A DNA stretch of 64,000 nucleotides, from sequence record MH359124, one strand, 5' to 3'. Made by a program: the position numbers and the translations under genes. Shown here piece by piece: positions 13,147 to 53,641 of this stretch. This DNA is from Escherichia phage SF. Position 1 is the first letter of the stretch. Each line of letters begins with the position of its first letter. Under the pieces are notes generated by a model. That model ran no database searches. It was not told where the DNA came from and was given only the letters and a program-made list of their open reading frames with translations.

Positions 13147-13458
13147 ATGAAAACCTATCAAGAGTTTATCGCTGAAGCTACTAAAGCCGATAAAAATTTT
13201 ATTATTAACACCACCGGTCCGTTAGATGATGAATACGCTAATGCTATTATTAAGTCAATTTCTAATCAAGGCGTTGAAGTAACAAATTTCGAATATAAGA
13301 AAAATGATACTTATATGATAATTAGTATCAAAAAAGGTTCAAAAGCCAAAATTAAATCCGCATTTGGTGTTATGCGAGTTGACCAAATCGATAACCACGA
13401 TTTTTCACAAACAGGGGCCAAACGCCAAAATACCATTTCTTCTAAAGGCATAAAATAA
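13147..13458 (+). CDS. internal-protein-like injected protein with capsid targeting sequence
   Basis: N-terminus MKTYQEFIAEA equals T4 IP capsid-targeting sequence; 103 aa. Confidence 0.7.
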   Translation: MKTYQEFIAEATKADKNFIINTTGPLDDEYANAIIKSISNQGVEVTNFEYKKNDTYMIISIKKGSKAKIKSAFGVMRVDQIDNHDFSQTGAKRQNTISSKGIK

Positions 13459-13500
13459 TTTACAACACGATAGGACTATGTTATAATAGTCCTATCAAAA
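13458..13500 (+). promoter_or_regulatory. PeSL-like early promoter: TATAAT flanked by GATAGGACTA / TAGTCCTATC
   Basis: aatttacaacacGATAGGACTAtgtTATAATAGTCCTATCaaaac. Confidence 0.6.
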
Positions 13501-13519
13501 CAACCAAATGGAACCTAAA

Positions 13520-16901: not shown

Positions 16902-17165
16902 ATGGATAATTACGGCGAACTGTTCAACTTCTTTATGAAATGTGTTCCAGAAGATTTCGGACGTACGGTGAATGATATTAAAGTTATCGGTCCTGAACAC
17001 CCTGTGTATGAAACCTATGCAGTAATGGGTAATGAAGACGGACAGTGGTATACAATTAAAGTTGTGATTAATATGTTCTCGGCCGAAGGCTACGCCAAAT
17101 CGTCTACCAAAGTTTACCATGATAACGATTTTGATGCGGAAGATTATTTCAATAATATGAAATAA
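16902..17165 (+). CDS. hypothetical protein
   Basis: ATG after GGAG; MDNYGELFNFFMKC. Confidence 0.5.
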   Translation: MDNYGELFNFFMKCVPEDFGRTVNDIKVIGPEHPVYETYAVMGNEDGQWYTIKVVINMFSAEGYAKSSTKVYHDNDFDAEDYFNNMK

Positions 17166-17595: not shown

Positions 17596-17823
17596 ATGGC
17601 TACAGTTAGTATTGATGTCGTTGATTATGAATACACTGAAGAAGTTATTCGCAACCGTCACCCTGAAGTTCGTATCGATTCAGTCCAAGATTCCAAGTTC
17701 TGGACAACTGAGCTTAATCTGAGTGGTCCTTATGAAGCTGTTAAGAAGTTCATGGTTGAAGAATACTGTGAAGGCATGCACCCGGAAGACGCCGAGTTTT
17801 ATGTCAATTTGATTAAAAAATAA
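17596..17823 (+). CDS. hypothetical protein
   Basis: 75 aa ORF with GGAG RBS. Confidence 0.55.
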   Translation: MATVSIDVVDYEYTEEVIRNRHPEVRIDSVQDSKFWTTELNLSGPYEAVKKFMVEEYCEGMHPEDAEFYVNLIKK

Positions 17824-17868
17824 TTTACAAACTCTTGAGAGCAGAGTATAATGCTCTCATTGGATAAT
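17823..17868 (+). promoter_or_regulatory. PeSL-like promoter (TTTACA -35; TATAAT -10 inside GAGAGCA / TGCTCTC)
   Basis: aatTTACAaactcttGAGAGCAgagTATAATGCTCTCattggataataaa; paralogous to element at 47951. Confidence 0.6.
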
Positions 17869-17893
17869 AAACCACCAATTGAAAGGTAATAAT

Positions 17894-28557: not shown

Positions 28558-29016
28558 ATGACTATCAATTCAGACGTTTTTATCCGCCGTAATAAACTCC
28601 GTCGAATCTTTGAAACGGAGTTCCGCAAAATAAATGCTGGTATAAAAGATGCTGCAAAGTCTCTTGGACTACCAGGCTTTCATATCAAGTATTCTCAACA
28701 TCTCTTAGATCGTGCTATCCAGAGAGAAATAGATGAGAATTACGTTTTTGAATTATTTCGTAAAGTAAAAAATCATGTTAAAGAAGTTGCAGAATTTTTA
28801 TCAATGCCTGCACGTCCAGATGTTGATGAAGATTTTGTCGAAGGTGTCGAATATCGCCCAGGCCGTTTAGAAATAACTGACGGAAATCTTTGGTTAGGAC
28901 TTACAGTTTGTCGCGAAAATCCGGCATTCAAAATGAAGACTCTCCAATGCAGAATGGCTATTATTAACAGTAAACGACTACCAGGAAAAGCTTCTAAAGC
29001 AGTGATTAAAATCTAG
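28558..29016 (+). CDS. regB: RegB site-specific endoribonuclease
   Basis: MTINSDVFIRRNKLRR...YSQHLLDRAIQREIDE...; matches T4 RegB (152 aa). Confidence 0.9.
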   Translation: MTINSDVFIRRNKLRRIFETEFRKINAGIKDAAKSLGLPGFHIKYSQHLLDRAIQREIDENYVFELFRKVKNHVKEVAEFLSMPARPDVDEDFVEGVEYRPGRLEITDGNLWLGLTVCRENPAFKMKTLQCRMAIINSKRLPGKASKAVIKI

Positions 29017-33465: not shown

Positions 33466-33939
33466 ATGATTATCAATGAAAACTCTTGGCACTTTAAAAT
33501 TTATGCCGCGTTCAATAGTACATGGAATCGCCCGAAAACGTTGTGTGCTTATTTTTGGAAAACGTTAATCCCGGTATTGTCTGTTTCAATTATCGGATTT
33601 GCGATTTTAGCAGCAGTCGTAATCATTGGCCAGGAAATTTTAACTAAATTCTTTGTTTTTAGCAGTTTATGGACATTAGTTCCAGCCTCAATTGGCGTAG
33701 GCGTTTTAATGGTAGCAGTCATGGCTTTTATTGCTACCGGGTTGGTAATTGGTCCGTCTTGGTTGTTAGACAAATATAACGACAGAAAATATTATAAAGA
33801 AATTGAGTTCATTGCGCAAAACCAAGAACGAATTAAAAATGGACTTGAGCCTATTGAACGTAAGAAATCATTAATAGGCGAATACCTTAAAGCTCGTAAA
33901 GAAAAAGTCTGTCCTACTCTTGAATATAAGGCTAAATGA
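33466..33939 (+). CDS. membrane protein (about 3 TM helices)
   Basis: LIPVLSVSIIGFAILAAVVIIG and LWTLVPASIGVGVLMVAVMAFIATGLVIG. Confidence 0.55.
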   Translation: MIINENSWHFKIYAAFNSTWNRPKTLCAYFWKTLIPVLSVSIIGFAILAAVVIIGQEILTKFFVFSSLWTLVPASIGVGVLMVAVMAFIATGLVIGPSWLLDKYNDRKYYKEIEFIAQNQERIKNGLEPIERKKSLIGEYLKARKEKVCPTLEYKAK

Positions 33940-34925
33940 TGAAAACAATTATGAAAGGCTACTTTGGTAGCCACCTTTATGGAACGTCTACTCCTGAATC
34001 TGACGTCGATTTTAAAGAAATTTATGTCCCTCATGCTCGTGATATCTTGACCGGTAACGTTAAAGAACACATGAGCAAGAACACGAATAACACATCTTCT
34101 AAGAACACAAAAGACGACGTGGACCACGAGTTGTATAGTCTCAAATATTTCTTTAAACTAGCTATGGATGGTGAAACTGTCGCATTAGATATGCTTCACA
34201 CTCCGCAAAGTCTAGTAGTTAAATCTGATTTGCCTGACATGTGGAAGTATATTCAAGACAACAGGTCTCGTTTCTATACCACTAACATGAAATCTTATTT
34301 AGGGTATGTCCGTAAGCAAGCTTCTAAATACGGTGTCAAGGGTTCTCGACTGGCTATTCTTCGTCAAGCCCTTAAACGTTCTAATGAATGGGGTCAATAC
34401 TTTGATAATGGTGCAGTAATTCGTTTATCACATATGAAGAATGTTCTGCCCGTAGGTGAATTTGCTTCGTGGGTTGAAACCGAAAACGAGAAAACAGGTA
34501 AGCAAACGTTCTATAATCTGTTAGACCGTAAATTCCAAGACACATTAACCAATAAAGAGTTCAATGCCATCCTGGTTAAACTGGAAGAGAACTATGGCGA
34601 ACGTGCTCGTAAGGCAGAAGCTAACGAAGGTATTGACTGGAAAGCATTGAGTCATGCATGTCGTGGTGGACTTCAACTATTAGAAATTTATAAAACCGGC
34701 GACCTGGTTTACCCACTTCGGGATGCTCCATTTATTCTAGATGTTAAGCTTGGTAAACATACGTTTAAAACTGTACAAGAATTCCTAGAAGATATCGTTG
34801 ACCAAGTTGAACAAGCATCAGAACAAGCTGCCAAGAACGGTATGCAACAAAAAGTAGATATGAGTTTCTGGGATGATTTCCTTGAGCAAGTCTACTTAGA
34901 AAACCACAATTCGTACTATAAATGA
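33936..34925 (+). CDS. nucleotidyltransferase-fold protein (pol-beta superfamily GS...DxD motif)
   Basis: N-terminus YFGSHLYGTSTPESDVDF; 329 aa. Confidence 0.6.
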   Translation: MMKTIMKGYFGSHLYGTSTPESDVDFKEIYVPHARDILTGNVKEHMSKNTNNTSSKNTKDDVDHELYSLKYFFKLAMDGETVALDMLHTPQSLVVKSDLPDMWKYIQDNRSRFYTTNMKSYLGYVRKQASKYGVKGSRLAILRQALKRSNEWGQYFDNGAVIRLSHMKNVLPVGEFASWVETENEKTGKQTFYNLLDRKFQDTLTNKEFNAILVKLEENYGERARKAEANEGIDWKALSHACRGGLQLLEIYKTGDLVYPLRDAPFILDVKLGKHTFKTVQEFLEDIVDQVEQASEQAAKNGMQQKVDMSFWDDFLEQVYLENHNSYYK

Positions 34926-34971: not shown

Positions 34972-35016
34972 AGTGTACATGCTTTTAGGATATGTTATTA
35001 TAGACATATCAAAACA
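34972..35016 (+). promoter_or_regulatory. PeSL-like promoter (GTGTAC; TATTAT inside GGATATG / CATATC)
   Basis: taGTGTACatgcttttaGGATATGttatTATAGACATATCaaaacaa. Confidence 0.5.
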
Positions 35017-35031
35017 AGAGGAGAAAACAAA

Positions 35032-35250
35032 ATGAAAACCAAAATGTTAGAAATGATTCGTGAAGCTGGTGATAAAGGTCTTATGGTTAACACTCGTGAT
35101 GCAGACCAACGTCAAGCATTCGGTGAACTGAAATCCAAAGGTCTGGTTAAAGCATCCTTGGGAATCGGTAATGCATTACGAGTCACTTTGACTCCTGCTG
35201 GTAAAGCAGTGTTCTTTCAACCTCTTACCAAAAAATCTCGTCGCAAATAA
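35032..35250 (+). CDS. small basic protein, possible DNA-binding
   Basis: 72 aa, Lys/Arg-rich C-terminus. Confidence 0.5.
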   Translation: MKTKMLEMIREAGDKGLMVNTRDADQRQAFGELKSKGLVKASLGIGNALRVTLTPAGKAVFFQPLTKKSRRK

Positions 35251-35251
35251 T

Positions 35252-35296
35252 TGTTTACTTTTGCTTTAAACGTGTTATTATAGACCTATCGAAACG
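35252..35296 (+). promoter_or_regulatory. PeSL-like promoter (GTTTAC; TATTATAGACCTATC)
   Basis: ttGTTTACttttgctttaaacgtgtTATTATAGACCTATCgaaac. Confidence 0.5.
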
Positions 35297-35320
35297 AAAT
35301 GAGTAAATTTGGAGAATAAA

Positions 35321-36301
35321 ATGTTCAACGTTCAAATCAAAAAAGGTATCTATCGTAATAACGAAATCTCTGGTTCTTATGTTGCCACAAAGACCTGGTT
35401 CCCGGCAAAGCTTAATCCTGAATGTTCCCACTTAGGTGATGGTAAAATTTTCGTTATGATTGATGGTTCTGAACGTGGAGTATGGGTCTTCAAATCAGAC
35501 ATCGTAATGGAAGGAGCTGAGACATCACCAGTTGCAGTTGTTGAAAGCACTGAAGATATGAAAACTCGTATCAACAAACGCTTTAAAGTAATGAGCATGA
35601 TGACGAATGGCATTATCGATGGCAAAATTCGTTCACTCATTATTTCAGGTGCAGCTGGTATTGGTAAGACGTATTCTCTGGATAAAGCACTTAATAATGC
35701 TAATGATAACGGTTTCATCAAATACAAAAGCATTAATGGTAAAATCTCTGGTATTGGCCTTTACGAACAACTTTGGCTCAACCGTGATGCAGACAGCGTT
35801 CTCTTAATCGACGACGTTGATGTATTCTCGGATATGGACATCTTGAACCTTCTTAAAGCAGCATTAGATACCGGTGATAAACGCAAAGTTTGTTGGAGCA
35901 CTGCGTCATCTTATCTCGATGATAAGGGTATTGATAAAGAATTTGAGTTTGAAGGTACTATCGTTTTCATTACAAACGTTGATATCGATAAAGAGTTAGA
36001 ACGCGGTTCGAAACTTGCTCCGCACCTTCAAGCTTTAGTATCTCGTTCAGTGTATCTCGACCTTGGAGTACACTCTAATGAAGAGATTATGGTTCGAGTT
36101 GAAGATGTAATATTATCTACTGACATGATGCAGAAACGTGGTCTGACGGATGCAGAAACGTATAAAGCATTGTCCTGGATGAAGGCTAACGTATCTCGTC
36201 TTCGCAATGTATCATTACGTACGGCTCTTTATGTAGCAGATTTTATTTCAACTGATAAAGACGGTTGGGAGGAAATCTCTGAAGTTACACTTCTGAAATA
36301 A
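35321..36301 (+). CDS. AAA-type ATPase
   Basis: Walker A GAAGIGKTYS, Walker B VLLIDDVD; 326 aa. Confidence 0.65.
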   Translation: MFNVQIKKGIYRNNEISGSYVATKTWFPAKLNPECSHLGDGKIFVMIDGSERGVWVFKSDIVMEGAETSPVAVVESTEDMKTRINKRFKVMSMMTNGIIDGKIRSLIISGAAGIGKTYSLDKALNNANDNGFIKYKSINGKISGIGLYEQLWLNRDADSVLLIDDVDVFSDMDILNLLKAALDTGDKRKVCWSTASSYLDDKGIDKEFEFEGTIVFITNVDIDKELERGSKLAPHLQALVSRSVYLDLGVHSNEEIMVRVEDVILSTDMMQKRGLTDAETYKALSWMKANVSRLRNVSLRTALYVADFISTDKDGWEEISEVTLLK

Positions 36302-36311
36302 AGGTGAAATT

Positions 36312-36653
36312 ATGTTTGAACAATTTATTTACAATCTTTATAACGCAGGTCAGACTTTTTCCAAAGCTATGAAACAATCCGTCGAGGACTATGATAAAGA
36401 AGTTATCAACGGATATACCAATAGAGTTTATAAAACCGATTGTGAAGAAGGAGACTACAAGAGACTGCTCTTGGCCGCGAAGACTCAGGCCTTAATAAAT
36501 CTAGACCGAAAGCAGGTAAAGTTGGCAGGCGACTTCCGAGGTGAACTCTGCGCCATCAGGAATGAATATCGCATTCGTATCGAACACCAACGGAAAAATA
36601 CTACCCAATCCGCTTGGTTCAGTGGAAAAAATACCGAAAAAAGTTTCTTTTAG
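36312..36653 (+). CDS. hypothetical protein
   Basis: 113 aa. Confidence 0.5.
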   Translation: MFEQFIYNLYNAGQTFSKAMKQSVEDYDKEVINGYTNRVYKTDCEEGDYKRLLLAAKTQALINLDRKQVKLAGDFRGELCAIRNEYRIRIEHQRKNTTQSAWFSGKNTEKSFF

Positions 36654-36696
36654 TTGTTTACAAGGTCTATGGTTATGTTATTATAGACCTATCAAC
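36654..36696 (+). promoter_or_regulatory. PeSL-like promoter (GTTTAC; TATTAT inside AGGTCTAT / ATAGACCT)
   Basis: ttGTTTACaAGGTCTATggttatgtTATTATAGACCTatcaac. Confidence 0.6.
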
Positions 36697-36711
36697 TACT
36701 GGAGGTAAAAC

Positions 36712-37239
36712 ATGAACGCTAAAGATATTTTCAACCTGGTAAATTATAACGACGGTAAATTTAAATCTGAAGCACAAAGCAAGTTCTTTAATGACGTTGC
36801 TTATGGTAACGAGATTACCGTGGACGGAGGTCAGATTTTCAAATCTCGTTGGAATTGGATTGCTATCATCGATTCAGTTGGAATTGTGGAAGTCTACAAA
36901 AACACTAACAAAAAACGTACATTATTCTGGTCTCGTGAAACTAACGAGCAGTACAAAAAGGATAAAGCATCTCGTTTATCCAAAGTAACCCAGGAAGATA
37001 TCGAGTTTATCAAGAAAGATATCGAGATGTACGAAAATTTAATCGCTGAAGACCAGGCAGTACTCGATAAGTTTGATGAAATTAAAGCTTCTCGTGAAAT
37101 CCCTGACTTCATGAAAGAAACAGTAAACGAACGATACGCTCTCACTTCAGAACGTATTGCAAACTATACAAAACAGAAAGCAGAACGTATTAGTACTCTT
37201 CGGAAATTTGAAGAACGTTTAAAGACGGTTCACGCATAA
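36712..37239 (+). CDS. hypothetical protein
   Basis: 175 aa. Confidence 0.55.
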   Translation: MNAKDIFNLVNYNDGKFKSEAQSKFFNDVAYGNEITVDGGQIFKSRWNWIAIIDSVGIVEVYKNTNKKRTLFWSRETNEQYKKDKASRLSKVTQEDIEFIKKDIEMYENLIAEDQAVLDKFDEIKASREIPDFMKETVNERYALTSERIANYTKQKAERISTLRKFEERLKTVHA

Positions 37240-37240
37240 A

Positions 37241-37268
37241 CGCTTTACCCAAGGACGGGTTATAATGG
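37241..37268 (+). promoter_or_regulatory. promoter family member (CCAAGGACGGGT-TATAAT)
   Basis: ctttacCCAAGGACGGGTTATAATgg; paralogous to 38297 and 39315. Confidence 0.5.
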
Positions 37269-37301
37269 TTTTGAGTTCTAATTCAATCTGAGGAAATAGT
37301 T

Positions 37302-38297
37302 ATGAGCATTACATCTGATGCGGTAAAACATGAAATTAACGGTTTATGTGCTTCACAGATTAAAGTGTGGTTTAAAGACCATAATGATCGCAGAGCACTT
37401 AATTATGAGCAAATTGCTATCCAAGTTCATCAATTACTGACTAGTAAATTTGATTTTCATATGCCGTCTGAAATCTATACTAATCTGCCGCGAGCACTTA
37501 TTAAAGCGTGTAAAGGTTACGGAAAATCAATGGCCGATGGAATCTTCAGCGCGCTGAATAAACTTAACGTTCTGTCGATGATTAACTCTAACAACATTCT
37601 GCGTAATCTAGGACGTACCGATTTGTTCGGTCGTGAACAGTGTAAAATGCCTTTGAAATGGATTGTTGCTCATCTTAACGAGAACCAAACACGTTTTATG
37701 GCCGTATCAGCACGCTTACAAATGGGCCTAGATCGTCAGATGAACTTTAAAACTCATCCACGTTATTCAGGTTCAACAGACTTTTATAAATGTGAGCTTC
37801 AAAAGGTTGGTGGCAAAACTGTCTTAGTAGTTCGTGTAACGTTTGAAGGACGACGTCAAGGATATTTTGACATAATCGGCTCTGGACTTAAACATTGTGG
37901 ATTTATCGACGAAGTTGATATCAAGCGAGACGGCATTGGATACCGTATTGGATATGTTTGTACTCTTAAAGAAGAGATTTCAGGGCCAGCACCAGGACTA
38001 AAAGACGTTAGATATAAAGACGAGCTCGTTGAAGAAATAAAAGAAGTTGAATATGATATCAACCAAGAAGATGCTCTTAAAGACCTTATTGATGAACTGA
38101 ACCAAGACGTTATTCCTGTTCAGAAATTTGAATCAAAACATGCTGAGCAAATCAAATATTTTGAAGCTTTGATTAACGAACTTAATGTAACTATTCAACA
38201 GACTGACGATGAAATCTCACGATTAGCAGGCTTAAACGGTAAAAATAAAACAGAACGAGCTAATCTTATTCAAGTAGTAAAACTTCTTAAGGAATGA
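37302..38297 (+). CDS. hypothetical protein with C-terminal coiled coil (tandem gene 1 of 3)
   Basis: 331 aa. Confidence 0.55.
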   Translation: MSITSDAVKHEINGLCASQIKVWFKDHNDRRALNYEQIAIQVHQLLTSKFDFHMPSEIYTNLPRALIKACKGYGKSMADGIFSALNKLNVLSMINSNNILRNLGRTDLFGREQCKMPLKWIVAHLNENQTRFMAVSARLQMGLDRQMNFKTHPRYSGSTDFYKCELQKVGGKTVLVVRVTFEGRRQGYFDIIGSGLKHCGFIDEVDIKRDGIGYRIGYVCTLKEEISGPAPGLKDVRYKDELVEEIKEVEYDINQEDALKDLIDELNQDVIPVQKFESKHAEQIKYFEALINELNVTIQQTDDEISRLAGLNGKNKTERANLIQVVKLLKE

Positions 38298-38328
38298 TGT
38301 ACAACCAAGGATGGTTAGAGTATAATAA
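38297..38328 (+). promoter_or_regulatory. promoter family member (TGTACAACCAAGGATGGTTAGAGTATAAT)
   Basis: Near-identical to 39315 element. Confidence 0.55.
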
Positions 38329-38352
38329 ATTTTTCAACATGAGGAATATAAA

Positions 38353-39312
38353 ATGGCTTCTATTACACGTAGAGAACTTATCAAAGAATTTACCTCGAAC
38401 GCATATACCCCAGGTCCTAATCCTATCCGTATGCCTGTAAAGACTCCTGAAGAGATTGAGGAAGTCTGTTCATATTATGGGATTACTTCTCGTAAGTTTA
38501 CTCAATTTGAATGCGTTACTAACACACCCGTTAAAGAGTTCATTAAAAATGGTGAGTTCAGCCGTTTATTAGCCAAACAGAAACTTCGTAATTTTTGTAT
38601 CGGCGGCTACGGACAATATTTTGCTAAACAGTTCAGAAATAACCTTAACAATCTGATGGCCATTGCTTCTCGTATTCGTCCTCAAGCAATTAACATGAAA
38701 CGTTTGAAATATACTTACGATAAGTTAGAAATCATGGTTATCAGCGAGAACGAGTTCACTCTTACGTATAAACCTAAGAATGATAACGTTGCTCGTGTAT
38801 TCCACCAAGCGTTGGAAGTGTTAGGTGATAATATCCACCAGATTAAAGCAATTTATTCTCGTGAGCTTAATATTATCGACCCTATCAAGAATAAGGGCCA
38901 TATCGCTATCCAGGCTCGTGTATCTATTGGTAAAAAGGTTCCTGCGCCATGGTGGCACAAAGACTCTGAATACTATCAAAATCTTAAAAAGGAAAATGCA
39001 TTGTTTGAAGCATCGCTTACTGGGACCCCAATTGAACAGGCCGAAGTCCTAAGTGCTTATTCTACTTCGGGTAAATCAATGTTTAAAGGTTTGCCAAATG
39101 TGTGCAAACTGTCTGCAGTAAAACTAAATGTTTCTAATGACCTTCTTCCGGCCGAAGATTACCATTACAATCAAATCAAGGCCACTGTGGGCCAACTGTC
39201 TGTTGAACTTGACAAAGCACAAGCTAAGCTTCGTGATGCTCAACAAGTAGTTACCAAGCTCCAGTTGCAGTACTCTAAACTTTTTAACGCAATGAATGCA
39301 TTAAAATCATAA
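38353..39312 (+). CDS. hypothetical protein with C-terminal coiled coil (tandem gene 2 of 3)
   Basis: 319 aa. Confidence 0.55.
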   Translation: MASITRRELIKEFTSNAYTPGPNPIRMPVKTPEEIEEVCSYYGITSRKFTQFECVTNTPVKEFIKNGEFSRLLAKQKLRNFCIGGYGQYFAKQFRNNLNNLMAIASRIRPQAINMKRLKYTYDKLEIMVISENEFTLTYKPKNDNVARVFHQALEVLGDNIHQIKAIYSRELNIIDPIKNKGHIAIQARVSIGKKVPAPWWHKDSEYYQNLKKENALFEASLTGTPIEQAEVLSAYSTSGKSMFKGLPNVCKLSAVKLNVSNDLLPAEDYHYNQIKATVGQLSVELDKAQAKLRDAQQVVTKLQLQYSKLFNAMNALKS

Positions 39313-39314
39313 AT

Positions 39315-39348
39315 CAGTTTACAACCAAGGACGGTTGGAGTATAATCT
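39315..39348 (+). promoter_or_regulatory. promoter family member (GTTTACAACCAAGGACGGTTGGAGTATAAT)
   Basis: GTTTAC -35 and TATAAT -10 with 18 nt spacer. Confidence 0.55.
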
Positions 39349-39374
39349 TTCTATCTTAACGAGAGGAAAATATT

Positions 39375-40319
39375 ATGACACGTTCACATTACATTGATTA
39401 TTTTGCAGGTCTTATCGCTAACGTTCATGCCCAACGTGCTTCTGGTTCATTAGGATTTGATGTTCCACACAGAGTTGTAGTAAGTGACATTCTTCGCGAT
39501 TTTGGTACATACACAGGCCAAGAAAATCATATCTGTAAAGATACTCAGAATGCATATTCTCATTCATTAGGGACACTGCTTCAATGGTTTAAACGTTCTC
39601 GTTTATTATCTTCTACTGTAGCTCGTGATAACATTAAAAACTTTATGAAGCCGAGCTTTATTAAATCTGTGACATCTAAAATTGATTTAGTTGAATTTAC
39701 TATTATTAACGATGTTAAAAAGACTCATTTGGCTGATTGGTTATCTACCATTCCTGAAACTAAATTTGCTGATAAATTTGCTTGTGAATTCAATAACCAA
39801 GTGAATATGCTTTTTAAACATTCACGTAAATTATTCACAGGCGGTGATGGACGCACAAATAAAGTTCATGTTAAAGATTGGGTTACTGCAGTATTCAAAC
39901 CAACTGGTAATGGTAACGCATCATTGTCAATTGATATCCAGGTTCCTTATTACTACTCACGTAATCTCGGTACCATGAAAGCCGAAGAAATTAATAAGCA
40001 CAACAAAACTATTCGTTCGTTGTCTTATAAACTTCGTATGATGTTACAGACTATGGATGTTGTTGAAATGTTCAGCGAAACCGAAGATAACGGTTCAATG
40101 TTATTCAGTTCTCGTATTCAAATTAAGCTGAAGAACCCTAATGTGTTTAAGCCTATTAAAGAACCTAAAGCAGAAAAGGTTGATATCATGGCTGAAGAAC
40201 GTGAGTACCTCAAATCTCGTCTGAAAGAAGTCGAAGCCCAGATTGCAGAACAAACTAAATCGTTAAAAGCTCTGAATGCGAAAGCGGACGGTTTACGAAA
40301 TGCCATTGAGGTTTTATAA
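39375..40319 (+). CDS. hypothetical protein with C-terminal coiled coil (tandem gene 3 of 3)
   Basis: 314 aa. Confidence 0.55.
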   Translation: MTRSHYIDYFAGLIANVHAQRASGSLGFDVPHRVVVSDILRDFGTYTGQENHICKDTQNAYSHSLGTLLQWFKRSRLLSSTVARDNIKNFMKPSFIKSVTSKIDLVEFTIINDVKKTHLADWLSTIPETKFADKFACEFNNQVNMLFKHSRKLFTGGDGRTNKVHVKDWVTAVFKPTGNGNASLSIDIQVPYYYSRNLGTMKAEEINKHNKTIRSLSYKLRMMLQTMDVVEMFSETEDNGSMLFSSRIQIKLKNPNVFKPIKEPKAEKVDIMAEEREYLKSRLKEVEAQIAEQTKSLKALNAKADGLRNAIEVL

Positions 40320-40624
40320 TGAAACTACGTCTTTTAGAGGATATTGACATGAGCACTAATCATGGCTTGGTTAAGTTTATTGACGATAGTTCAAAGATTG
40401 AATTTGTTCAGCGAGATAAAATCCACGGTGAAGAAGAGTTCGTTCCTCCGGCATGGAACGAAATAATGAAAATGGTTGAACGACGTGAAAATGCTGCCAA
40501 ATCGGCAGCAAAACATCCATGCCCGGAATGTGGAACTATCCAAGTCCAACTGGTTAACTGGACCACTGATAACTTGAAATTGAAATGCCGTAAATGCTTC
40601 CACAAATTTGAGAGAACATTATAA
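40319..40624 (+). CDS. zinc-ribbon protein
   Basis: CPECG ... CRKC four-cysteine motif at C-terminus. Confidence 0.55.
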   Translation: MKLRLLEDIDMSTNHGLVKFIDDSSKIEFVQRDKIHGEEEFVPPAWNEIMKMVERRENAAKSAAKHPCPECGTIQVQLVNWTTDNLKLKCRKCFHKFERTL

Positions 40625-41037
40625 TGAGATATAGCCTTCGTTGTTTTATTATAGCTTTAGTTTTTGCCATCATTCCATTCATTTGGAACAGCCAGAATAC
40701 TTACATGGAAACTAAAGTAATTCCTGTGGAGGTAGTGGAATTAATTTCAGGACAATCTACAGGAAAATATTCTAAATTAGAATTTATTGCCGTCTATAAA
40801 GATGAGCAAGGACGAGTTTTTGACAGGCATGTATCACCGTCGTTTTATACGCTTCTGAATAAAGGTGATACGATAGCTATAGAAATTCGTGAGATGGATA
40901 TCAAACAAACTACTAAAAATAACTTAATTTGGTTCTTTGGTACAGTGTTGTTGGTTTCTATCTGTATCACAGGTTTTATTACATGTATTGTATTTGGCGT
41001 TGCATATTTAATCGATGAAAGGAAAAATAATGTTTAA
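40624..41037 (+). CDS. membrane protein
   Basis: N- and C-terminal hydrophobic helices. Confidence 0.55.
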   Translation: MRYSLRCFIIALVFAIIPFIWNSQNTYMETKVIPVEVVELISGQSTGKYSKLEFIAVYKDEQGRVFDRHVSPSFYTLLNKGDTIAIEIREMDIKQTTKNNLIWFFGTVLLVSICITGFITCIVFGVAYLIDERKNNV

Positions 41038-41293
41038 AGTGTACGGGTATGACTCTACTATTCATAAATGCATTTATTGTGATAATGCGAAACGATTGCT
41101 GACTGTTAAGAAACAACCATTCGAATTCATTAATGTTATGCCGGAAAAAGGTGTGTTCGATGATGAGAAAATTGCTGAGCTTCTGGTTAAGCTTGGACGT
41201 GAATCACAAGTCGGATTGACTATGCCTCAAGTGTTTGCTCCTGATGGAAGTCACATTGGTGGATTTGACCAACTACGAGAATATTTTAAATGA
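41030..41293 (+). CDS. nrdC: thioredoxin/glutaredoxin NrdC
   Basis: MFKVYGYDSTIHKCIYCDNAKRLL; 87 aa; matches T4 NrdC. Confidence 0.9.
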   Translation: MFKVYGYDSTIHKCIYCDNAKRLLTVKKQPFEFINVMPEKGVFDDEKIAELLVKLGRESQVGLTMPQVFAPDGSHIGGFDQLREYFK

Positions 41294-41586
41294 ATATCGA
41301 TTTAACTTTCCCAGGCCCTTATGACCGGAACGAATTAGAAACTTTGTTATATCAAGAAATGTGCTCTCGTGCTAAGAACGATATTCAGTATGCTATTGAT
41401 AATCCATGGGGCGAATTTCGGGTAATGATGGGTAATAGAATCATCGGTGTCCAATGGCGATTCGTTGGCCTTGAGCCTGAGGACTATGAAGAAAACGAGC
41501 ATGGTGACTGGATTCCTGTTGGTGAATACCACTGGGAATACGGTGGTCCTGACTTCGAAGTTTCCTGTGCATGGGTAGAACAATAA
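41290..41586 (+). CDS. hypothetical protein
   Basis: 98 aa, ATGA coupling. Confidence 0.5.
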   Translation: MNIDLTFPGPYDRNELETLLYQEMCSRAKNDIQYAIDNPWGEFRVMMGNRIIGVQWRFVGLEPEDYEENEHGDWIPVGEYHWEYGGPDFEVSCAWVEQ

Positions 41587-41604
41587 CCTGCGAGAATATT
41601 TTAA

Positions 41605-41961
41605 ATGACATATTCATTAAATCTTAAAGATTTCCAAGATGTATACGAAGTTTGTGCCAATGAACTTGGTCCTGATGCTCCAACTATTATTGAAGTTTTA
41701 AATGTGCTCCCTTCATCATTAGCTTACGAAGCCAAATCATGGGGTTGGAACGACACTGTCGTTCGTGATGACCTTTACGTCCTGATGAACGATATGATGG
41801 TTAAAAAGGCAGAACCGGTTGCACCAATGGTTACCATTACCGTTGAAGAATATAATCGCCTGCAAGCCATTGAAGAGCTTCTGTGGAACATTGAATGTGA
41901 CCTGCCGTCAGGGCTAGAATCCTGGATTGATTATGAAGAGCTCAATAAACTCCGGGGTTAA
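41605..41961 (+). CDS. hypothetical protein
   Basis: 118 aa. Confidence 0.5.
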   Translation: MTYSLNLKDFQDVYEVCANELGPDAPTIIEVLNVLPSSLAYEAKSWGWNDTVVRDDLYVLMNDMMVKKAEPVAPMVTITVEEYNRLQAIEELLWNIECDLPSGLESWIDYEELNKLRG

Positions 41962-42008
41962 ACCGTGGTATTCGGCTCGATGGGAGACAGTCGAGCCAGA
42001 CGTCGAAA

Positions 42009-51956: not shown

Positions 51957-53641
51957 AATCATTTAAATTAAATCGTGTTCGTTATCAAAACATCATGTCG
52001 GTAGGTGGGAATCCTATTGACATCCAATTAGATAAAGTCCAAAAGACATTAATCACTGGTAAAAATGGTGGTGGTAAATCTACGATGTTAGAAGCCATTA
52101 CTTTCGGACTTTTCGGTAAACCATTTCGTGATGTTAAGAAAGGACAAATCATTAATAGCACGAACAAGAAAGAGCTCTTAGTTGAGCTTTGGATGGAATT
52201 CGATGGTAAAAAATACTTCATTAAACGCGGCCAAAAGCCCAATATTTTCGAAATCTCCGTTGACGGTGTTCGTCTTGATGAATCTGCCAGCAGTCGTGAC
52301 TTCCAAGAAGAATTTGAACGTAGCATCGGAATGTCATACGCGTCTTTTAAACAAATCGTTGTGCTTGGGACGGCAGGGTATACCCCTTTCATGGCTCTTA
52401 GCACCCCTGCTCGTAGAAAACTTGTCGAAGACCTTTTAGAAGTCGGCACACTCGCTGAAATGGATAAAATCAATAAGTCTCTAGTTCGAGAACTTAATTC
52501 CCAGGGGCAAGTTCTCGATGCCAAGAAAGATGGTGTTATCCAACAAATTAAGATTTATAACGAGAATATCGAACGTCAAAAGAAATTATCTGGCGATAAT
52601 GTAGCGCGTCTACAGAATATGTATGACGACCTAGCCAAAGAAGCTCGTTCATTAAAAGCAGAAATTGAAGAAGCTAACGAGCGTCTACTTAATATCGTTC
52701 TTGATGAAGACCCTACTGAGGCATTCAACAAGATCGGACAAGAAGCATTCTTGATTAAATCTAAAATCGACTCATATAACAAAGTTATTAAGATGTATCA
52801 TGACGGTGGTACATGTCCTACTTGTGCATCACAGTTGCACCAGGGTGATCCTATTGTCTCTAAGATTACCAATAAGCTTCAAGAATGTAATCACTCATTC
52901 GAGCAACTTACATGTCACAGAGATAATCTGAGTGTCCTAGTGGACGAATATAGAGCTAATGTTAAGACTAAACAGGACCTTGCATCTGATATTCGTACCA
53001 AGAAACAAGCAATGATTGCCACTATTGATAAAGCTAAGAAAGTTAAAGCTGCAATAGAACAAGCCTCAGCTGAATTTATCGACCATGCTGATGAGATAGC
53101 TTTGCTTCAAAAAGAACTTGATAAAATCATTAAAACAAAATCGGATATCGTTCTTGAAAAATACCATCGTGGTATTATCACAGATATGTTAAAAGATTCT
53201 GGTATTAAAGGTGCTATCATTAAAAAATATGTGCCTCTGTTCAACAAGCAGATTAACCATTATCTTAAAATCATGGAAGCTGATTATGTGTTTTCTATTG
53301 ACGAAGAATTCAATGAATCTATAAAATCACGTGGTCGTGAAGATTTTAGTTATGCTTCATTTAGTCAAGGTGAAAAGGCCCGTATCGATATCGCGTTGTT
53401 GTTTACATGGCGAGATATTGCTGAAAAGGTCTCTGGTGTTAAAATCAACACTCTGATTCTTGATGAGGTTTTTGATGGTGCTGTCGATTCTGAGGCTGTT
53501 AAGGCTATAGATACCATTCTTGGAAGTTTACAAAATACTAATGTGTTCATTATCTCTCATCGAGACCATGACCCTCAACGTTATGGACAACATCTTCAGA
53601 TGAGCAAAGTTGGACGATTTACTGTAATGACCGTTTCATAA
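51953..53641 (+). CDS. 46: recombination endonuclease subunit gp46 (Rad50-like ATPase)
   Basis: 562 aa; Walker A GKNGGGKST, coiled coil, CPTC zinc hook, D-loop LILDEVFDG. Confidence 0.95.
   Translation: MKSFKLNRVRYQNIMSVGGNPIDIQLDKVQKTLITGKNGGGKSTMLEAITFGLFGKPFRDVKKGQIINSTNKKELLVELWMEFDGKKYFIKRGQKPNIFEISVDGVRLDESASSRDFQEEFERSIGMSYASFKQIVVLGTAGYTPFMALSTPARRKLVEDLLEVGTLAEMDKINKSLVRELNSQGQVLDAKKDGVIQQIKIYNENIERQKKLSGDNVARLQNMYDDLAKEARSLKAEIEEANERLLNIVLDEDPTEAFNKIGQEAFLIKSKIDSYNKVIKMYHDGGTCPTCASQLHQGDPIVSKITNKLQECNHSFEQLTCHRDNLSVLVDEYRANVKTKQDLASDIRTKKQAMIATIDKAKKVKAAIEQASAEFIDHADEIALLQKELDKIIKTKSDIVLEKYHRGIITDMLKDSGIKGAIIKKYVPLFNKQINHYLKIMEADYVFSIDEEFNESIKSRGREDFSYASFSQGEKARIDIALLFTWRDIAEKVSGVKINTLILDEVFDGAVDSEAVKAIDTILGSLQNTNVFIISHRDHDPQRYGQHLQMSKVGRFTVMTVS

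Follow-up and report, generated by a model that had tools for sequence, protein, structure and literature searches.

What three adjacent genes of similar size in a T4-type phage have in common, and whether the like promoter element found before each of them marks a dedicated set, is the question raised by positions 37,241 to 40,319 of a 64,000-nucleotide stretch of Escherichia phage SF (sequence record MH359124), which was analysed as a whole and is here referred to as the window. The first-pass annotation of this DNA had described three tandem genes of 315-330 amino acids, and three open reading frames (ORFs) of 331, 319 and 314 amino acids are indeed present on the + strand: g1 (37302-38297) of the NrdC.6 family, g2 (38353-39312) of the NrdC.5 family (DUF7235), and g3 (39375-40319) of the NrdC.3/NrdC.4 family. 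The genes are known T4-type ORFs, one of their families having a published anti-defence role, and the real common part of the three promoters is a stem-loop located between the -35 element, or a MotA box, and the -10 element. The observation was in this way partly confirmed, and the interpretation first given to it partly supported. On balance, and with some reserve, we favour a reading in which the locus would be a T4-type nrdC array of diverged paralogs with promoters of their own and a role in counter-defence, the promoters carrying a hairpin module that is distributed genome-wide.

The SF window represents a Mosigvirus, an RB69-like phage, and the locus is the Mosigvirus version of the nrdC.6-nrdC.3 array of T4. 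At the DNA level the region shares 97.6% identity with Mosigvirus S143_2, and a database search matched it to 515 T4-type phage records; the identity of the sister Mosigvirus ECO111 5-P (OR844765.1) to the window is approximately 94% across 36623-41297. In order, the genes are nrdC.10, nrdC.9-like, nrdC.8, g1, g2, g3, nrdC.2, nrdC.7-like (encoding a membrane protein) and nrdC, with 77, 83 and 51% identity to the T4 neighbours for the homologs of nrdC.10, nrdC.8 and nrdC.2, respectively, and this synteny places the locus in the T4 nrdC-mobD hyperplastic region, in keeping with the earlier assignment to an nrdC hyperplastic region. g1 matches phrog_2257 (E = 2e-127), the PHROG that also contains T4 NrdC.6, and holds the syntenic position after nrdC.8; BLASTP identity to Tequatrovirus NrdC.6 proteins is 29-31%, the best match being 31% over the full length (E = 8e-33), and PF26899 is precomputed on its homologs. 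Among 1.8 billion proteins this family forms just 6 clusters when grouped at 50% identity, and the representative-library search with g1 that returned these 6 clusters did not reach the families of g2 and g3. The match of g2 to Pfam DUF7235 (E = 2e-122; 408.9 bits against a gathering cutoff of 30) is full length, residues 15-318 covering profile positions 1-307 of 307, and phrog_2351 is common to g2 and T4 NrdC.5, to which g2 is 23-24% identical in BLASTP (E = 1.5e-8 over 336 columns). g3 is 58% identical to T4 NrdC.3 and matches phrog_1435 (E = 1e-101), which also holds T4 NrdC.3 and NrdC.4; PF26897 is found on its homologs, the gene lies directly upstream of the nrdC.2 homolog with its stop codon overlapping the start of the latter, and its family extends to 652 phage records, nearly all of them T-even phages of Escherichia, Shigella or Yersinia. 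A search of IMG/VR for related loci yielded only 7. Many database homologs are labelled as thioredoxin or glutaredoxin, an identity that was considered and rejected; as none of g1-g3 has such a Pfam or NCBIfam match (the NCBIfam search of the three gave no match at all), and as the true nrdC at 41015-41293 does match Glutaredoxin, the 'thioredoxin' label is one propagated from the locus name 'nrdC.x'. A sequence search of the PDB with all three family profiles returned coiled-coil noise only (E >= 0.04).

That g1, g2 and g3 belong to one superfamily, with a variable head and a conserved coiled-coil tail, has moderate support from sequence profiles and structural models. The C-terminal coiled coil that had been noted in each protein was borne out: every one of them ends in about six unbroken heptads, in one register over the last 42 amino acids, with L, I, V or M at 67-75% of the a/d positions (shuffle p of 0.036 for g1 and <0.0005 for both g2 and g3). 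In g2 the tail occupies about the last 50 amino acids, and in the two proteins modelled with AlphaFold2 (AF2) terminal helices are predicted at residues 281-330 of g1 and 273-313 of g3. The g1 model, with a predicted local distance difference test (pLDDT) score of 68.7, consists of a helical/beta head, a linker and the tail; the g3 model is poor (pLDDT 49.2), with its C-terminal helix at pLDDT 70-81. The closing pattern [KR]L..A...L.K is present in the tails of all families, and in six of the seven pairs compared it is the tail that shows the higher conservation (for example 58% versus 30-34% for the head), the two being about equal in the seventh. The N-terminal domains had been called not obviously similar, which held true for pairwise BLASTP, where g1, g2 and g3 gave no match to one another; judged by profiles and secondary structure, the heads are probably homologous. 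With shallow alignments hhalign detected nothing between g1 and either g2 or g3, and only 46% probability between g2 and g3. The families were widened with Dhakavirus QL01 (three genes), Kanagawavirus ZX14 (one gene, 338 amino acids) and a Jiaodavirus (one gene, 324 amino acids), and the 338-amino-acid ZX14 homolog was then linked to the NrdC.6 family at 2e-6, to the NrdC.5 family at 2.4e-5 and to the NrdC.3/4 family at 7e-5, the NrdC.5 and NrdC.3/4 families to each other at 6e-5, and the NrdC.3/4 family to the Jiaodavirus homolog at 4.7e-6. These links are near full length, and with the last 75 amino acids removed most of them still stood at 1e-3 to 1e-6, converging on a central motif, xxLAxxSRL..G...FK, in which a helix ending A.SRL..G is followed by F/L-K. 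The AF2 secondary structures of g1 and g3 run parallel (helices at approximately 3-23, 35-50, 56-70, 118-127 and 129-141, and a beta-hairpin at approximately 161-179), and Foldseek with the g1 model matched, at E < 1e-3, ten proteins of about 280-380 amino acids from phages of at least six host genera; its matches were only among T4-like phage proteins. Foldseek matches of the g3 model were set aside as uninformative, the head model having failed (pLDDT 49).

Several observations weigh against our favoured reading. The profile comparison that had been proposed for the three genes joins them through the bridging homolog at 1e-4 to 1e-6, yet direct links of the NrdC.6 family to the other two are weak (E = 0.01-0.05), and its connection to them depends on that one bridging sequence; profile scores can be inflated by coiled-coil composition; and the parallel head secondary structures come from one moderate and one poor model (pLDDT 68.7 and 49.2). 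In addition, the identity of g2 to T4 NrdC.5 is just 23-24%, such that anti-Dsr1 activity (see below) may have been lost, and the promoter of g1 is without the TGn of its T4 copy and has a MotA box matching at 6/7 positions. The superfamily would have grown by tandem duplication in the T-even phages, giving rise to extremely diverged paralogs, in each of which a fast-evolving head of about 250 amino acids, made of helices and a beta-hairpin, is joined by a disordered linker to a coiled coil that runs for about six heptads and presumably oligomerises the protein. As far as the searchable literature shows, this paralogy has not been described.

The array itself is plastic, T4 possessing four of its genes, Mosigvirus and Dhakavirus three, and Kanagawavirus and Jiaodavirus one. 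In phage ACG-C40 a natural deletion of about 3 kb (L137 4805-5213) fuses codons 1-71 of nrdC.5 to the final 70 codons of nrdC.3, thereby removing nrdC.4 and most of both flanking paralogs; an explanation of the ACG-C40 gene as a tail swapped onto a new head was rejected, the junction being this nrdC.5/nrdC.3 deletion fusion. The nrdC.6 gene of the T4 reference is truncated at its 3' end by a change of frame with loss of the tail, where its relatives continue with NISIQQYDDEIFRLSGLSSKAKSEREKLIKIVDLLKS, and the lost coil, SSKAKSEREKLIKIVDLLKS, representing the last 20 codons, is still readable out of frame in the T4 nrdC.6-nrdC.5 spacer (51996-52065, minus strand); the truncation is a frameshift either in the laboratory strain or in the record. 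Similarly, NrdC.5 of the RB69 reference matches g2 with 95% identity for 74% of its length, after which comes an unrelated C-terminus, an out-of-frame tail that looks like the product of a frameshift removing the coiled coil, which would make it the second tail-less paralog of a laboratory strain.

The three genes had been regarded as being of unknown function, a description that stands for g1 and g3, which fall in sister families with no known function, and no longer fits g2, whose family includes T4 NrdC.5, reported to overcome Dsr1. A T4 clone carrying a deletion is unable to plate on Dsr1 cells, and expression of nrdC.5 restores plating (Srikant, Guegler and Laub 2022, PMC9391042). Dsr1 is a sirtuin defence, and NrdC.5 would be the only characterised member of the proposed superfamily. 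Because T4 NrdC.5 counters Dsr1, our best guess at the function of g1-g3 is that of a battery of early, diversified counter-defence genes: the likely job of the proteins would be counter-defence, each diversified head would have its own target among the defence or sensor proteins of the host, and a change of hosts would see the array expand, contract and lose members. Time-resolved omics data for T4 list nrdC.3, nrdC.4 and nrdC.6 with early RNA and early protein, and nrdC.5 with early RNA and middle protein (PMC9697503 supplement). If the three families do form one superfamily, the NrdC.5/Dsr1 result becomes a starting point for an entire group of T-even accessory genes, and NrdC.3, NrdC.4, NrdC.6 and their homologs, carried by hundreds of therapeutic-type coliphages, would become candidates for defence-inhibitor screens as well as candidate host-range determinants.

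Analysis of the upstream regions established that the near-identical element said to precede each gene is in fact of two kinds. A 26-nt element, ACAACCAAGGAYGGTTRGAGTATAAT, occurs in exactly two copies in the window, at 38301-38326 before g2 and at 39321-39346 before g3, and no further match at up to 3 mismatches was found there, the chance expectation being 0. Before g1 lies a shorter relative, CGCTTTACCCAAGGACGGGTTATAAT (37241-37266), which has CCAAGGACGG and TATAAT in common with the other two at a different spacing, and no -35 hexamer is present 17 nt upstream of its -10. The early promoters of g2 (38298-38326; -35 TGTACA at 38298-38303, -10 TATAAT at 38321-38326) and g3 (39318-39346; -35 TTTACA at 39318-39323, -10 TATAAT at 39341-39346) are identical at 24 of 26 positions and match the sigma70 consensus at 10/12 (TGTACA-17-TATAAT) and 11/12 (TTTACA-17-TATAAT) positions, the latter being the best in the region. 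The exact 10-mer CCAAGGAYGG is found at the three trio sites only in the 64 kb, and since the spacers of the other sigma70-type promoters in the window are unrelated, the likeness of the trio promoters is more than a generic early-promoter consensus, the possibility on which the original observation might have foundered. In MotA-dependent middle promoters a -10 is combined not with a -35 but with a MotA box, (a/t)(a/t)(a/t)TGCTTtA, centred near -30, and the g1 element has this arrangement, with a MotA-box-like CGCTTTA at 37241-37247 (about -32 to -26; in context aaaCGCTTTA at -35 to -26, 6/7 of the TGCTTtA core) and a -10 TATAAT at 37261-37266. It is the positional and sequence ortholog of T4 CGCTTTATACCAAGGATGGTATAAT upstream of nrdC.7, where the identified middle promoter PnrdC.7 is listed with its start at 53325 (Table 1, Hinton 2010, PMC2988021), exactly 7 nt after that -10 (TATAAT = 53337-53332) and thus at +1. 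The trio would therefore span two promoter classes, g1 having a MotA-type middle promoter, whose activity is predicted from orthology, and g2 and g3 having sigma70 early promoters. A MotA homolog, 50% identical to T4 MotA, is encoded by ECO111 5-P, outside the stretch corresponding to the window. A terminator scan found no + strand intrinsic terminators between g1, g2 and g3, so read-through RNA also exists, and the three genes would be transcribed before replication, each from its own promoter and additionally on read-through transcripts. A further promoter-like sequence, TTTACG-17-TATAAT at 40292-40320, lies within the last codons of g3, its TATAAT running into the ATG of the nrdC.2 homolog (TATAATG); it is probably due to chance, as its T4 counterpart has no TATAAT.

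The common stem-loop is a module of 14-16 nt in the window, with a covarying stem of 4-5 bp and the loop AAGGAY: ACCC[AAGGAC]GGGT before g1 (37247-37260, a perfect 4-bp stem), AACC[AAGGAT]GGTT before g2 (38303-38316, with a 5-bp stem CAACC/GGTTG in relatives) and CAACC[AAGGAC]GGTTG before g3 (39322-39337). The four T4 copies have the stems TTATACC/GGTATAA (nrdC.7), CCAC/GTGG (nrdC.4), AGCC/GGCT (nrdC.3) and TACCAC/GTGGTA (rIIA.1); the g1 site has TTATACC/GGTATAA in T4 and QL01 and ACCT/GGGT, with a U.G wobble, in ECO111 5-P, the g3 site has AGCC/GGCT in T4 and CATCC/GGATG in QL01, and AACACC/GGTGTT and CACC/GGTG occur in other phages. In 11 distinct versions the four core pairs are paired in 100% of cases, with three of them changing on both sides, as against 24-49% for slid controls, a count that is biased in that the sequences were chosen by their stems. 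The loop lies 2-9 nt from the -10, a distance too variable for a fixed RNA polymerase contact. The predicted RNA stability of the stem-loops is -4.4 to -7.4 kcal/mol. A search of 35000-42000 against Rfam (E <= 1) gave no match, and the module was not found in the Jiaodavirus and Kanagawavirus loci. Several identities were considered and rejected, namely an intrinsic terminator (no U-tract, weak stems), a mini-ORF starting with an ATG within the loop through AAGGATG (C and A variants abolish the ATG, and the Shine-Dalgarno (SD) spacing is zero) and a site for CRP or another dimeric protein (stem sequence is free while pairing is kept); a DNA cruciform appears unlikely for stems of 4-7 bp with loops of 4-6 nt, and a MAFFT alignment of the 3' end of nrdC.8 with the promoter element was treated as an artefact. 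In some Tequatroviruses (L128 7940-7975, L133 26120-26160) the closing pair of the pre-nrdC.3 hairpin is C.A and the -10 now reads TACAAA, so that hairpin and promoter appear to decay together there. As far as can be seen from the searchable literature, this covarying hairpin inside the promoters has not been described.

The hairpin could be a functionless relic, that is, inherited duplicated intergenic DNA or a chance palindrome, and it is true that the stems are short, that hairpins of at least 4 bp near TATAAT are about equally common on both strands, and that the copy before the T4-type nrdC.3 decays with its -10 in some phages. We nevertheless consider this very unlikely. Of 61 AAGGAY sites on both strands of the window, three have at least 3 flanking complementary bases, and these are exactly the g1-g3 copies, while the background in unrelated viral DNA, a set of chance matches from a loose viral-contig pattern scan for TTTAC..AAGGAY..TATAAT, is 8/1218. 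Stem lengths adjoining -10 elements are bimodal, being either 0-2 or 4-7, and among small hairpins abutting TATAAT no loop recurs more consistently than (A)AGGA(Y), with 3-4 such loops in each of two complete genomes and on the early strand only. At orthologous sites pairing is moreover kept through double changes, as after nrdC.8 (TACC/GGTA, ACCC/GGGT, ACCU/GGGU) and before the last big gene (AACC/GGTT, ATCC/GGAT, AGCC/GGCT), and the promoters have remained near-identical while the flanking genes diverged beyond BLAST detection.

The interpretation proposed at the outset, that g1-g3 are co-regulated as a dedicated set, of which a single special early promoter would be the mark, drew on the 24/26 identity of the g2 and g3 promoters and their unlikeness to other early promoters in the window, on the CCAAGGAYGG and TATAAT common to all three upstream regions, and on T4 homologs that are all early at the RNA level. 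It did not survive the census of hairpin copies, by which it is largely refuted, and we now hold it to be improbable. The g1 promoter is MotA-type, has no -35 and falls into a different class, T4 nrdC.5 has no promoter of its own while T4 nrdC.6 uses that of nrdC.7, and no candidate for a dedicated regulator was found. Furthermore, AAGGAY hairpin promoters number 5-6 per T-even genome, on the early strand only, and in sister phages the module also precedes the unrelated genes alc, motB, a motB-like gene, rIIA.1 and a 54-amino-acid ORF. In ECO111 5-P the identical 25-mer CAACCAAGGATGGTTGGAGTATAAT occurs at three sites, before g2, before g3 and before the motB-like gene 42 kb away, with close variants before motB, alc and the 54-amino-acid ORF; T4 has a copy before rIIA.1, and alc and motB carry the module in Mosigvirus and not in T4. 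As the same module heads alc, motB, rIIA.1 and others, it is not a private mark of a trio regulon but a genome-wide cassette of T-even prereplicative promoters. The tandem genes motB and motB-like of ECO111 5-P (145271-146312), of about 160 amino acids each, are paralogs with a common C-terminal region, DQW[IV]EDG..L.N[VI]V..GDF.VV, and each stands behind a hairpin promoter, representing a second case of tandem paralogs with a hairpin cassette.

Because the module lies upstream of +1, it could act only on DNA or on read-through RNA, and any role given to the hairpin is one that we infer. An RNA signal on read-through transcripts would take the form of an unpaired GGA, with the stem fixing the fourth base, offered for cleavage by RegB independently of S1, or of an SD-like AAGGA docking 30S/S1; transcripts from upstream would be cut or marked while proximal ones would be without the site, making each gene dependent on its own promoter. 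The early intergenic sites of RegB are cut at GG^AG/U, and when S1 is missing the enzyme requires an unpaired GGA followed by a constrained fourth base (Uzan and Miller 2010, PMC3014915). Consistent with such a signal, the promoter-context copies in the two complete genomes are all on the sense/early strand (11 versus 0 on the late strand), the stems covary and tolerate U.G or G.U pairs, the predicted folds put GGA in the loop, a RegB homolog 77% identical to that of T4 is encoded at 28558-29010 (+), read-through RNA exists in view of the missing terminators, and in four hairpin types a canonical GGAG follows directly after the stem (GGTTGGAGTATAAT). The loops themselves fit less well: they read GGAC (g1), GGAU (g2) and GGAC (g3) rather than GGAG or GGAU throughout, and neither the GGAC of two of the three window loops nor the GGAA of S143_2 is a documented RegB tetranucleotide, while the T4 module loops are all GGAU. 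Strong RegB sites have an A-rich 3' context (GGAGRAYARAA) that is missing here, neither of two mismatched stem pairs is a wobble, both being C.A, and an RNA signal has no need to sit 2-9 nt from the -10 each time, although spacers of 55-62 nt leave little room. We accordingly treat the RNA signal as a doubtful possibility. Equally tentative is a more far-reaching proposal, in which a T-even prereplicative promoter subclass, numbering about 5-6 per genome, of both early and middle types and situated before nrdC.3-7, rIIA.1, alc, motB and others, would carry a structured module (a 4-7 bp stem of free sequence, closed by C-G, with the SD-like loop AAGGAY) as an S1-independent RegB or ribosome-docking site, by which upstream transcripts would be inactivated or re-routed, and would be combined with an oligomeric, head-diversified counter-defence family of which NrdC.5, with its anti-Dsr1 activity, would be the first member decoded.

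Alternatively, promoter, hairpin and the adjoining conserved tail-coding DNA may serve mainly as portable homology for the excision, insertion or swapping of accessory genes by recombination between cassettes, in the manner of the promoter-early stem-loops (PeSLs), whose shuffling was shown in RB49/phi1 and proposed for T4/PST (Arbiol 2010 PMC2839356; Comeau 2014 PMC4122927). This is conceivable, and a little easier to credit than the RNA signal, although we would not call it probable. In its favour, the region is hyperplastic, the genera differ in where they carry cassettes, the copy number of the array varies and ACG-C40 has its 3-kb deletion; the identical 25-mers CAACCAAGGATGGTTGGAGTATAAT at distant sites of ECO111 5-P provide indirect support, and degraded PeSLs with intact stem-loops are found at about 50 kb in PST (Comeau 2014, PMC4122927). 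The promoters of g2 and g3 are sigma70-like and stand between accessory ORFs, as those of PeSLs do, which is not so for g1, owing to its lack of a -35 hexamer. Against a recombination cassette, homology for recombination needs neither a conserved loop nor compensatory stem changes, the ACG-C40 junction falls within coding sequence and not at cassettes, and the stem-loop is weak, without a U-tract and placed within the spacer, whereas the published one is upstream of the promoter and terminates. Two other early promoters in the window, at 13437-13512 and 36654-36711, have long inverted repeats that bracket the -10 (GATAGGACTAT..ATAGTCCTATC and AGGTCTAT..ATAGACCT) and fit the AGNA-loop-TCNT stem pattern reported for T4/PST PeSLs. 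A second recurrent early-strand promoter type, TTTACAAACTCT[TGAGAGC]AGAGTATAATGCTCTC (hairpin ACTCT[TGAGAGC]AGAGT), with about 3 copies per genome, was seen at 17800-17880 of the window, at 16957, 81506 and 157546 of ECO111 5-P and at 87981 of NIC06P2; its small hairpin ends at the -10 and is bracketed by the inverted repeat GAGAGCA / TGCTCTC.

Returning to the T4-type array of diverged paralogs with a genome-wide hairpin, the module bears on the wiring of compact early regions in T4-type phages, and the hairpin, if it acts as proposed, would provide a novel layer of control or else a device for recombination that differs from the published PeSLs; should both the paralogy and the hairpin reading fail, what is left is an unremarkable part of a known hyperplastic region. 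Upstream of the array lie homologs of NrdC.11 (33936-34925), annotated in T4 as a nucleotidyltransferase, and of NrdC.10 (35309-36301), a P-loop protein (AAA/STAND-like) kept across Straboviridae (1310 phage records); no study of either was found.

The closest known counterpart of the locus is the T4 array, with which it shares its neighbours (nrdC.8 upstream, nrdC.2 downstream) and its families, at 58% identity between g3 and NrdC.3 and approximately 30% between g1 and full-length NrdC.6. The two differ in that T4 has four genes where the window has three, that nrdC.7 heads the array in T4 and is found downstream of it in the window, and that g2 has a promoter of its own while T4 nrdC.5 has none. 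T4 PnrdC.7 and the g1 element both consist of a CGCTTTA box, a hairpin and then TATAAT; the stem is TTATACC/GGTATAA in the former and ACCC/GGGT in the latter, T4 has a TGn extended -10 that the g1 element does not, and PnrdC.7 drives nrdC.7 and nrdC.6 where the g1 element would drive g1 directly. T4 NrdC.5 and g2 have DUF7235, phrog_2351, array position and length class in common, both are early genes, and their coiled-coil endings are alike (KLFNAMNALKS and KLNNALNALN, respectively); NrdC.5 is anti-Dsr1, g2 is only 23-24% identical to it, and g1 and g3 belong to sister families. PeSLs resemble the trio promoters as short repeated intergenic elements, with a sigma70-like promoter and a stem-loop, which lie between accessory ORFs of hyperplastic regions and are associated with insertions and deletions. 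The PeSL stem-loop is an effective terminator upstream of the promoter (PMC2839356, PMC4122927), unlike that of the window, which is positioned between the -35 or MotA box and the -10, carries a conserved loop, AAGGAY, and is found in a middle promoter as well. RegB sites, finally, are like the window loops in being intergenic and in having a sense-strand GGA, which in the window loops is predicted to be unpaired with a constrained fourth base, in a phage that has a regB gene, but they are cut at GG^AG/U, the strong ones within an A-rich 3' context, whereas two of the three window loops have C as the fourth base and are without that context.

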